Positions 122-1,625 of a stretch of 1,625 bases of DNA are shown here, in pieces. Source of the stretch: Naegleria gruberi (Eukaryota). The notes under the pieces were generated by a model. It was given only the letters and a program-made list of their open reading frames with translations, made no database searches and was not told the DNA's origin. How positions within the stretch are numbered: the first letter of the stretch is position 1; the number at the start of each line of letters is the position of its first letter. A program made the translations under genes and the position numbers. Where the stretch lies: NCBI GenBank assembly GCA_000004985.1, contig GG739366.1; one strand, 5' to 3'.

Positions 122-634
122 ATGTCAATTGTTAAAAAATTATTTGGTGGATCTCCAAGTAAACAACCATCATTATTTAAAACATCCATATATAGAAAAT
201 CAGATCCATTTTATAATTTTATTAATCAATTTAGTGAAAATGATTTAATTCAACCATTAATATCTTCATCTCTTTTACCATTACCAGTTGATGTTAAAGA
301 ATCAGATAAAGAATTTGAATTACTTGCTGATATTCCTGGTTTTTCTAAAAATGAAATTAATTGCCTAATTGATCAAGATAAACATTTGTTAACTTTAAAA
401 GGTGAAAAGAAAGAAGAAAATGAAGAAAATGAAGGAAATTATATTATCAAAGAACGTTATTATAATTCCTTTACAAGACATTTTGATATTCCTTCAAATG
501 TTAATTTAGATCAAATTAAAGCTCAATTAAAAAATGGTCAACTTAAATTAACAATTCCAAAATTAGAAAATCAAAATGAAACTGAAAATGTTAATAATAT
601 TAAGAATATTGAAATTAATACTTTAAATGAATAA
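122..634 (+). CDS. Small heat-shock protein, Hsp20/alpha-crystallin family (170 aa); resembles the dictyostelid hspG paralogue group
   Basis: The translation carries a textbook alpha-crystallin domain: PVDVKESDKEFELLADIPGFSKNEINCLI...LTLKGEKK...ERYYNSFTRHFDIPSNVNLDQIKAQLKNGQLKLTIPK. Its N-terminal region has an SDPFYNF (DPF-type) motif, and its C-terminal tail has an I-x-I motif (NIEIN). I chose ATG 122 as the start because of its context ttgaaaATGtca, the 5'UTR-like A-rich sequence upstream, and the TATA box at 8-15. The track ORF 38..634 is the same frame with a non-coding-looking 28-aa extension (MCTLIKKTTPELQLLITLIKYNNINNLK). The stop is TAA at 632-634. No intron is needed. Codon usage (TTA, CCA, GGT, AGA, CAA, GAA) fits the genome. 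Confidence 0.9.
   Translation: MSIVKKLFGGSPSKQPSLFKTSIYRKSDPFYNFINQFSENDLIQPLISSSLLPLPVDVKESDKEFELLADIPGFSKNEINCLIDQDKHLLTLKGEKKEENEENEGNYIIKERYYNSFTRHFDIPSNVNLDQIKAQLKNGQLKLTIPKLENQNETENVNNIKNIEINTLNE
284..562 (+). other. Alpha-crystallin domain (ACD) core of the small heat-shock protein; it contains an acidic KKEENEENEGN insertion encoded by a GAA-rich purine tract at 401-439
   Basis: Conserved ACD landmarks can be read in the translation: the ADIPGF strand, the R in ERYYNSFTR, and the GxL motif in NGQLKLTIPK. The EEN-EEN insertion lies between the LTLKGEKK strand and ERYY, a loop that varies in length between small heat-shock proteins. Confidence 0.8.
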
Positions 635-750: not shown

Positions 751-963
751 TTAATCTCTTCTTGTTCTAATTTGATGTACAAGTGCTGGATTTTGATTTT
801 TTAATATTTGTGGATTAATTTGATCATACATTCTATGATTTTTTTGTACATGAAATTTCTCTCTTAATAATTCTTCATATTCAAGTCTTTCATTATGAAA
901 CATTAATCCTTTCTTTTCATCATCACGTACTCCTACTATTGCTAATATAACTGGTATTATCAT
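751..963 (-). CDS. Small protein (70 aa as a single exon): short N-terminal hydrophobic segment (MIIPVILAIVGV) followed by a charged, helix-prone tail (RDDEKKGLMFHNERLEYEELLREKFH...RTRRD); family unassigned
   Basis: A 70-codon open frame in roughly 72% A+T sequence is longer than expected by chance. G+C rises to about 28% across 754-960 against about 7% in the flanking intergenic DNA. Codon choice matches the neighbouring genes (CCA, TTA, AGA, CAA, GAA). The stop is TAA at 753-751. The start as drawn is ATG at 963-961, but its context (agtggaATGata) lacks the usual A-run, and the hydrophobic stretch is too short for a full transmembrane helix. See the finding on a possible upstream exon. I see a weak, unverified resemblance to single-pass mitochondrial respiratory-complex accessory subunits (COX6C-like V-x-D-x-x-K-K-[AG] and [FY]EE[ML].[RK] patterns). 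Confidence 0.55.
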   Translation of the reverse strand: MIIPVILAIVGVRDDEKKGLMFHNERLEYEELLREKFHVQKNHRMYDQINPQILKNQNPALVHQIRTRRD

Positions 964-987
964 TCCACTTGTTATTATATATATTTA

Positions 988-1034
988 TATTATTATTATT
1001 ATTATTATTATATTGATGATGATGATATATATAT
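988..1034. repeat. Compound microsatellite (TAT)8 at 988-1011, (GAT)4 at 1015-1026, (AT)5 at 1025-1034
   Basis: Seen directly. It lies immediately upstream, in minus-strand sense, of the 70-aa ORF, in either its 5' leader or an intron. Confidence 0.9.
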
Positions 1035-1051
1035 GATAATGTTCATGTTGT

Positions 1052-1096
1052 TGATGATGGTGATGATTATTTGTTGATGATAAAGTGATGATGAAT
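1052..1096. repeat. Imperfect GAT/GTT-rich triplet tract (tgatgatggtgatgat ... gatgatgaat)
   Basis: Seen directly. Read on the minus strand it is CAT/CAC/CAA-rich (HHHHQQHEH in the frame of the downstream ORF), but an in-frame TAA 8 codons before ATG 963 follows it. Confidence 0.7.
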
Positions 1097-1252
1097 AAAA
1101 AAGCCTTTAAAAAAGAAACGTACAATGAAGCATATTTCATTACTTTCATTTTTTTATATTTAATTTTTTTATTAGAAATGTTATCAGGAAATTCTCATCC
1201 ATTAAATATATTTAATATTAAGAGATCACTTTACAATCGAGTTGTTTTTCAT

Positions 1253-1341: not shown

Positions 1342-1625
1342 ATGTCCAACAAGAATAATCATCATCATGATCATCATCAGCCTAACTTGACGACTAGTAA
1401 GAAATATATAAAACAAGAGGAAGATGAATTATCAACAATAACAAGAAAGTTATCATCATCACCTACTACTACGGAATCACTTTCTCCTTCTCCACCTATA
1501 AAAGCCTCATCAACATCATCATTAGGCTCATCATTGAATTATGATAAAATTGATAAAACTGATAATAATAATAGTAATAATAATATATTTAGAAGAATTC
1601 TTAATTATATAATACATACACTTTA
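1342..1625 (+). CDS. 5' end of a protein-coding gene, open to the window end (94+ codons), with a low-complexity His/Ser/Thr/Asn-rich N-terminus of unknown function: MSNKNNHHHDHHQPNLTTSKKYIKQEEDELSTITRKLSSSPTTTESLSPSPPIKASSTSSLGSSLNYDKIDKTDNNNSNNNIFRRILNYIIHTL...
   Basis: The start context is caaaaaaaATGtcc, a typical A-run start context. In frame 1 (coordinates congruent to 1 mod 3) I found no stop codon from 1342 to 1625 by manual codon-by-codon reading, which is unlikely by chance in AT-rich DNA. G+C is raised (for example cctactactacggaatcactttctccttctccacc). The six-frame track omits it only because it has no in-window stop. The overlapping track ORF 1085..1390 is in a different frame. 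Confidence 0.65.
   Translation, partial: MSNKNNHHHDHHQPNLTTSKKYIKQEEDELSTITRKLSSSPTTTESLSPSPPIKASSTSSLGSSLNYDKIDKTDNNNSNNNIFRRILNYIIHTL
1360..1377 (+). repeat. (CAT)3 GAT (CAT)2 coding triplet repeat giving HHHDHH
   Basis: Seen directly, inside the CDS that starts at 1342. Confidence 0.8.

Follow-up and report, generated by a model that had tools for sequence, protein, structure and literature searches.

A probable two-exon microprotein gene in an AT-rich window and its relative in Naegleria fowleri

Introduction

We report that a 1,625-base stretch of DNA (hereafter the window; 22% G+C overall) almost certainly carries a real and conserved nuclear microprotein gene which, judged by sequence comparison, adds a new and so far unannotated member to a small family. 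This family also includes a protein of Naegleria fowleri, annotated but uncharacterised, and two environmental sequences of eukaryotic origin. The gene very probably consists of two exons that are spliced to encode 80 residues, the junction being placed by conservation. The gene, its family, and the spliced model with the anatomy of an anchored helix, when taken jointly, form a likely reading of this locus.

This reading provides a case of a conserved spliced microprotein gene (80 codons, with a first exon of 26 nt) that escaped notice when a draft protist genome was annotated automatically. In N. fowleri, the brain-eating amoeba, what had been a singleton “hypothetical protein” becomes part of a conserved family, small but with its motif and gene structure defined, which offers a specific target for tagging, complexome profiling, and knock-down.

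The 70-Codon Frame and Its Coding Signal

The original prediction described a 70-codon open reading frame (ORF) convergent with a heat-shock gene. The frame is present as described: it runs from ATG to TAA on the minus strand at positions 751-963 (translation MIIPVILAIVGVRDDEKKG...IRTRRD), and the neighbouring gene is a member of PF00011 (Table 1). The stop codons of the two convergent genes are 117 nt apart. The product of the neighbour is exactly the N. gruberi protein XP_002668065.1 (NAEGRDRAFT_77025, D2W6I1), and the nearest relative found for this Hsp20 is 67% identical.

The frame had also been described as a compositional island of about 28% G+C between flanks of about 7%. The value for the 3' flank is accurate (6.9% at 635-750), whereas the frame itself has 25.4% G+C and the 5' flank (964-1123) has 20.6%. 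In other words, the island is one-sided, because the low G+C is found only in the 3' flank. At third codon positions, the G+C of the window is only 4-7%.

Could the frame have arisen by chance in AT-rich DNA? Among dinucleotide shuffles, those of 635-1342 (the inter-gene region) contained an ATG-initiated ORF of at least 70 codons in 3% of cases and those of the whole window did so in 7.5%, and the length of the ORF by itself is weak evidence of coding at such a composition. The internal composition of the frame, on the contrary, is of the coding type: its G+C contents by codon position (49/21/7%) resemble those of the Hsp20 gene (37/24/5%), internal stops occur in all five of the other frames, and its codon log-likelihood is the best of the six (+3.7 bits versus -17.5 or lower).

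Neither the 70-aa nor the 80-aa form of the product was found in a collection of 15 billion proteins, in which the Hsp20 was the only product of the window to be present. This points to the lack of a gene model for the small gene, in agreement with the expectation that a locus of this kind goes unannotated.

Relatives and Selection

Using an exhaustive phmmer (HMMER) search against 1.84 billion representative proteins, we obtained three hits, two of which are true relatives. One (P0009; E 7.7e-7, 54% identity) is a 56-aa fragment of exon 2 from a 12-kb JGI metagenome contig, and the other (P0010; E 3.9e-6, 56% identity) is a 79-aa protein from a Logan assembly that shares a 90% cluster with N. 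fowleri FDP41_011610 (P0012, XP_044567393.1, A0A6A5CAJ2; 79 aa). A third relative (P0013), from an ENA metagenome, was added by a profile search. When the window protein was left out and compared with the other three by hhalign, it was recovered with a probability of 98.7% (E 4e-16). Because it groups with FDP41_011610, the window protein is not a complete orphan. A literature search on FDP41_011610 found no papers.

The family as treated here consists of four loci, all from one apparent lineage. With the 80-aa query, a word-indexed search over 5.8 billion proteins gave zero candidates, and a scan of JGI metagenomes for more loci gave 249 pattern matches, none of which was confirmed.

It should be mentioned that the top HMMER hit (P0008; 2,842 aa, E 1e-15) was rejected. 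It is a T/V/S/D-rich tandem-repeat protein whose score is an artefact, because ten repeats of approximately 5.7 bits each (per-stretch E of approximately 2e6) were summed. A 952-aa UvrA-like protein (P0011) that is clustered with the 56-aa fragment at 90% identity was set aside as a clustering artefact.

The original prediction had proposed purifying selection as a check, and its signature is seen in the comparison of the two environmental loci (L002 and L004), which differ by 13 synonymous and six non-synonymous substitutions (dN/dS 0.098), while their introns are of unequal length and identical at 32 of 54 positions. Across genera, protein identity is 39-52%, and 20 columns are invariant in the four sequences. 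These sequence comparisons show that purifying selection is acting on the family. Homologues at E values of approximately 1e-6 in a search of this size, a conserved intron position (described below), and a family dN/dS of 0.10 leave the chance reading with hardly any probability; it is effectively refuted by the homologues, the selection, and the intron conservation. The claim that this is a real protein-coding gene accordingly holds, on the significant homologues, the codon-position G+C, and the best of six frames.

The genomic neighbours differ among the loci: a PAS-guanylate cyclase in N. fowleri, a BTB protein at L002, and the Hsp20 in the window. Because synteny is not conserved, the convergent Hsp20 gene is uninformative on function, and this neighbour is incidental. 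The source had been assumed to be a dictyostelid, which is not supported: the Hsp20 is recorded as N. gruberi NAEGRDRAFT_77025, and the only named relative of the microprotein is that of N. fowleri.

A Two-Exon Gene Model

The 70-aa ORF had been offered as the gene product, with an 80-aa form (a 26-nt upstream exon plus an intron) as an alternative. Our comparison favours the alternative: the ORF would be only part of exon 2, which contains the whole of it, and the predicted spliced product has 80 residues (MKVMKYASFGMIIPVILAIVGVRDDEKKGLMFHNERLEYEELLREKFHVQKNHRMYDQINPQILKNQNPALVHQIRTRRD), running MKVMKYASFGMIIPVILAIVGVRDDEKKG...IRTRRD. In this model, exon 1 starts with an ATG at 1147-1149, just after an A-rich leader, and ends in phase 2 (Table 1).

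Table 1. Features of the window, with the predicted exons and protein segments of the microprotein gene, and the gene structures proposed for the other three loci (a slash marks the acceptor junction).
Feature	Position	Strand	Description
HSP20 small heat-shock gene	122-634	+	170 aa; Pfam PF00011, E 9.2e-22; outside the microprotein gene
Exon 2	751-967	-	last base of codon 9, codons 10-80, and TAA at 751-753
Variable Pro/Asn/Gln-rich linker and basic C-terminus	754-822	-	residues 58-80, ...IRTRRD
Conserved charged helix (predicted)	823-924	-	residues 24-57, DDEKKGLMFHNERLEYEELLREKFHVQKNHRMYD; holds most of the invariant family residues
Hydrophobic (predicted transmembrane) segment, exon-2 part	928-967	-	residues 9-22, FGMIIPVILAIVGV
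Intron	968-1123	-	156 nt, GTACGT...AACAAG (GT..AG)
Exon 1, coding part	1124-1149	-	26 nt, ATGAAAGTAATGAAATATGCTTCATT; encodes MKVMKYAS and the first two bases of codon 9
Hydrophobic segment, exon-1 part	1126-1140	-	residues 4-8
Third gene	1342-1625	+	runs off the contig end; begins MSNKNNHHHDHHQPNLTT...
N. fowleri gene			433 nt for 79 aa; exon 1 of 32 nt, ATGGAATTTGTGCGAAATAATTGGTTCACAAT; donor GTTCGT; intron of 193 nt; acceptor caacag/T GCA ATG
L002			exon 1 of 29 nt; donor GTATGT; intron of 40 nt; acceptor ttaaag/T
L004			exon 1 of 29 nt; donor GTATGT; intron of 49 nt; acceptor cgaaag/T

The main evidence for splicing is the conservation of the intron in position and phase. At all four loci (the window, L001, L002, and L004), a GT..AG phase-2 intron splits a codon exactly 29 residues before an invariant EYE, and exon 1 also ends in phase 2 at the other three loci, where its lengths are 32, 29, and 29 nt. 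The acceptor of the window reads aacaag/T GGA ATG. Within the 156-nt interval there are just two AG dinucleotides, one 18 nt from the donor and one that coincides exactly with the homologous acceptor. As splice donors go, GTACGT is not the most frequent form. The reading frames of the intron score -0.15 to -1.27 bits per codon versus +0.13 for exon 2, and in the window, as at L002 and L004, unspliced read-through from exon 1 runs into a stop.

The opposite reading is that the unspliced 70-aa ORF, initiated at the ATG at 961-963, is the true product and that the upstream mini-exon is a coincidence. The ORF is indeed complete, with its own ATG and stop, and the splicing in our model is deduced from conservation. 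However, the methionine encoded at 961-963 is not conserved in the relatives, the acceptor AG lies exactly at the phase-2 site that is homologous to those of the N. fowleri model and both environmental loci, and exon 1 opens with an ATG that has A-rich surroundings, while the GT at its end is in the phase that the splice needs. Hydrophobicity is also against it. The 70-aa form has a hydrophobic start of just 12 residues, and its best 19-residue Kyte-Doolittle mean is 0.78, whereas that of the 80-aa form is 1.91 (residues 4-22), the usual threshold for a membrane helix being 1.6. The spliced value resembles those of the equivalent segments in L002 (2.06) and L004 (2.09). We consider it very unlikely that the unspliced ORF is the product, and return here to the spliced model, in which exon 1 would complete the anchor, because the 80-aa form reaches 1.91 and the 70-aa form only 0.78.

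The intron at 968-1123 consists largely of microsatellites, (TTA)n at 972-1011 and (TGA)n at 1014-1094. Its retention would give a 54-codon ORF (985-1149) whose tail is rich first in His and then in Ile.

In the relatives, the intron also affects ORF calling. Prokaryote-style ORF calls (2361-2600 at L003 and 50-289 at L004) begin at an ATG inside the intron. Because ORF calling takes this intronic ATG, the N-termini of P0010 (MYVLFHEHFNS...) and P0013 (MFRFSFSCADCPLSES...) are false, and the true first exons lie upstream.

Anatomy of the Protein

The plan put forward in the original prediction, namely a hydrophobic segment followed by a charged helix and a basic C-terminus, is retained, although the 70-aa form to which it was applied lacks a complete membrane helix and the segment would become complete only in the spliced protein. 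The sequence thus probably, on balance, has an N-terminal membrane anchor. The equivalent segment of the N. fowleri protein is marginal (0.84), and given this value membrane insertion is not certain for every member. Within the hydrophobic segment, one Gly is invariant and a second is present in three of the four members, so that three members have G-x4-G and the window protein has a single G. The residues flanking the segment give no clear membrane topology, and the net charge of the proteins is +3 to +4.

Conservation is concentrated in the charged region, where D25, K28, M31, E35, E38, Y39, E40, L42, L43, R44, K46, Q50, K51, R54, M55, Y56, and D57 are invariant and constitute the motif D..K..M...E..EYE.LLR.K...QK..RMYD. 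Beyond it, P61 and R78 are invariant, and the C-termini read RRD, RRD, KRE, and KRE in the four members. An AlphaFold2 model of the N. fowleri homologue, built with five sequences, has one helix over residues 3-58 and then a break at the Pro-rich linker, at low confidence (mean pLDDT 61, pTM 0.27).

The hydrophobic stretch might instead be a cleaved signal peptide, in which case the product would be a secreted or lumenal charged peptide of approximately 55 residues. All members have a basic residue ahead of the hydrophobic core, N. fowleri has a plausible A-x-G site right before LFDD, and the hydrophobic region is the least conserved part of the protein. On the other hand, a hydrophobic core of 17-20 residues exceeds what is usual in signal peptides, and the V/I/G of the window protein at positions -1 and -3 make a poor cleavage site. 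The invariant Gly, together with the second Gly in three of four members, suggests that the helix is retained and packs against something. Cleavage is decidedly unlikely on this evidence, and a retained anchor is the reading that we follow below.

The closest known system is the N. fowleri gene, FDP41_011610. The two products are of similar length (79 versus 80 aa), and each gene is split into two exons by a phase-2 intron that lies 29 codons ahead of EYE. Both proteins have an N-terminal hydrophobic segment, a D..K..M...E..EYE.LLREK...QK..RMYD helix, and a C-terminal RRD. They are 39% identical overall and 56% identical over the core. In contrast, the N. fowleri segment is far less hydrophobic (0.84 versus 1.91), exon 1 is two codons longer, the linker is three residues shorter, and the neighbouring genes are different. 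The N. fowleri gene has approximately 36% G+C versus approximately 25% for the window gene.

Comparison with Known Families

It had been stated that the protein could not be placed in a named family, and the profile searches agree. Pfam scans with the 70-aa and 80-aa forms and the four members (E<=10) gave noise only: Fst_toxin (0.23), ABC_membrane_3 (0.36), and DUF1087 (0.72), in one member each. Among PDB sequences, phmmer found none, and a profile search gave six hits at chance level, the best being GRK3 (E 0.39), followed by the CBP/p300 KIX; these six hits include no respiratory-complex subunit.

For a comparison by hhalign, the references were 17 small N-terminally anchored proteins, 16 of which were validated against Pfam, Cox9 having matched none. 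The set comprised COX6C, Cox9, MWFE, MNLL, NDUFA3, ATP synthase subunit e, Tim11, DAPIT, the 6.8-kDa proteolipid, PET100, PET117, COX16, UQCC3, Cbp4, SMIM20, QCR9, and STMP1. The family profile reached at most 3.9% probability against these 17 references, in the same range as the reversed-sequence controls. Among the positive controls, human subunit e versus Tim11 gave 59.6% and UQCC3 versus Cbp4 gave 24.6%, and COX6C versus the Cox9 reference gave 0.4%; because this last pair was itself missed, negative hhalign results are weak for such short proteins.

The individual families gave the same picture. A loose likeness to COX6C had been noted in the original prediction, but COX6C (PF02937) had no Pfam hit in the four members at E<=10, and hhalign gave 0.1% against the Pfam-validated human COX6C, a value that equals the reversed controls. 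The likeness to COX6C is therefore unsupported by these tests. The other profile checks that had been suggested, against NDUFA1/MWFE (PF15879) and NDUFB1/MNLL (PF08040), were also negative, with no Pfam hit and 0.1% by hhalign for each; the MWFE reference itself matched PF15879 with an E value of 5.6e-23. ATP synthase subunit e (PF05680) had no Pfam hit and gave 0.1% with the human protein and 2.2% with yeast Tim11, the latter being equal to the reversed control. For PET100, PET117, COX16, UQCC3/Cbp4, SMIM20, QCR9, NDUFA3, STMP1, DAPIT, and the 6.8-kDa proteolipid, there were no Pfam hits, and hhalign gave at most 3.9%.

Nevertheless, the microprotein could be a highly diverged version of a known respiratory or ATP-synthase subunit or assembly factor (COX6C/Cox9, NDUFA1/MWFE, NDUFB1/MNLL, subunit e, PET100, COX16, or UQCC3) whose similarity has been eroded below detection. 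The resemblance in architecture is real: NDUFA1/MWFE, PET100 (PF09803), UQCC3 (PF15141), and subunit e are mitochondrial inner-membrane proteins of 60-100 residues with a very short N-terminus and one hydrophobic helix, followed by a charged helix that in those proteins binds partner subunits, and the 70-80 aa of the microprotein are arranged in the same way. Moreover, in the discoban Andalucia godoyi, COX6C/Cox9, COX7C, ATP5ME, ATP5MG, UQCR11, NDUFB1, and NDUFC1 were reported as “not detected” by sequence (PMC7050145). Because that survey missed them, small respiratory subunits seem to be generally hard to find in the discoban supergroup, and even human COX6C and the yeast Cox9 reference, which was not validated by Pfam, are barely matched by hhalign, as mentioned above.

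The likeness, however, is one of architecture only. The microprotein has no detectable sequence or profile similarity to MWFE, PET100, UQCC3, or subunit e, as the Pfam, PDB, and hhalign results indicate. The family is without the GxxxG of subunit e, having G-x4-G in three members, and is also without the W..M.RDRR motif of MWFE. COX6C/Cox9 is likewise single-pass, and its helix is followed by a stretch of basic and acidic residues, but COX6C has a basic N-terminal segment of approximately 20 residues ahead of the helix, whereas the hydrophobic segment of the microprotein starts at residue 4-8 in four of four members. The two motifs that had been compared with COX6C are 12 residues apart in COX6C and eight residues apart in the window protein. 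With these points on both sides, descent from one of the known subunits seems unlikely.

A Possible Role

Proteins with one hydrophobic and one charged helix of this kind have their commonest home in the mitochondrial inner membrane. I speculate here on how the window protein might work. The first 20 or so residues would form a single N-terminal membrane anchor, and the next 35 or so would form one continuous, highly charged alpha-helix that projects from the membrane. On this helix, M31, Y39, L42-L43, F/Y47, and M55-Y56, which lie among fixed E, K, R, and Q residues, could make up a surface on which a partner protein docks, more likely than a site of catalysis. After the charged helix would come a linker rich in Pro and then a basic tip (RRD or KRE).

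An architecture of this kind suggests, a little short of an even chance, that the protein is small and anchored and serves a complex of membrane proteins, either as an accessory subunit or as an assembly factor. That its location is mitochondrial is doubtful, although the same architecture is consistent with it, and it is unlikely that the protein specifically serves a heterolobosean mitochondrial membrane complex, as a small subunit or assembly factor that is either confined to the lineage or diverged beyond recognition. If this last were true, the protein would be one of the small single-pass subunits (e.g., COX6C/Cox9 or ATP synthase e) that are listed as “not detected” in discobans, and it would help to complete the respiratory-complex parts list of Naegleria, including that of the pathogen N. 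fowleri. The family looks narrow.

The Window and Its Other Features

The genome-wide G+C content of N. gruberi is 33% (PMC8296547, Table 2), so that the window, at 22%, is far under the average and atypical for that genome. The window microprotein is 39% identical to that of N. fowleri, and the product of the metagenome locus L002 (approximately 39% G+C) is 51% identical to it. The window may be an atypical region of the N. gruberi genome, or a stray or contaminant contig from another AT-rich eukaryote that has the same family.

The third gene of the window (Table 1) encodes a low-complexity product rich in His, Ser, Thr, and Asn, and its G+C contents by codon position are 29/38/16%. Between this third gene and exon 1 of the microprotein gene lies a divergent region of 192 bp, which holds two copies of a bipartite motif, ACGTGT-N(0-7)-TTTAAATTTCC, at 1255-1278 and 1304-1320 on the plus strand (region 1253-1320). 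Even a single match was found in none of 200 shuffles. The motif is a candidate shared cis-regulatory element. The palindrome ACACGTGT (1253-1260) encloses the first copy of the motif.
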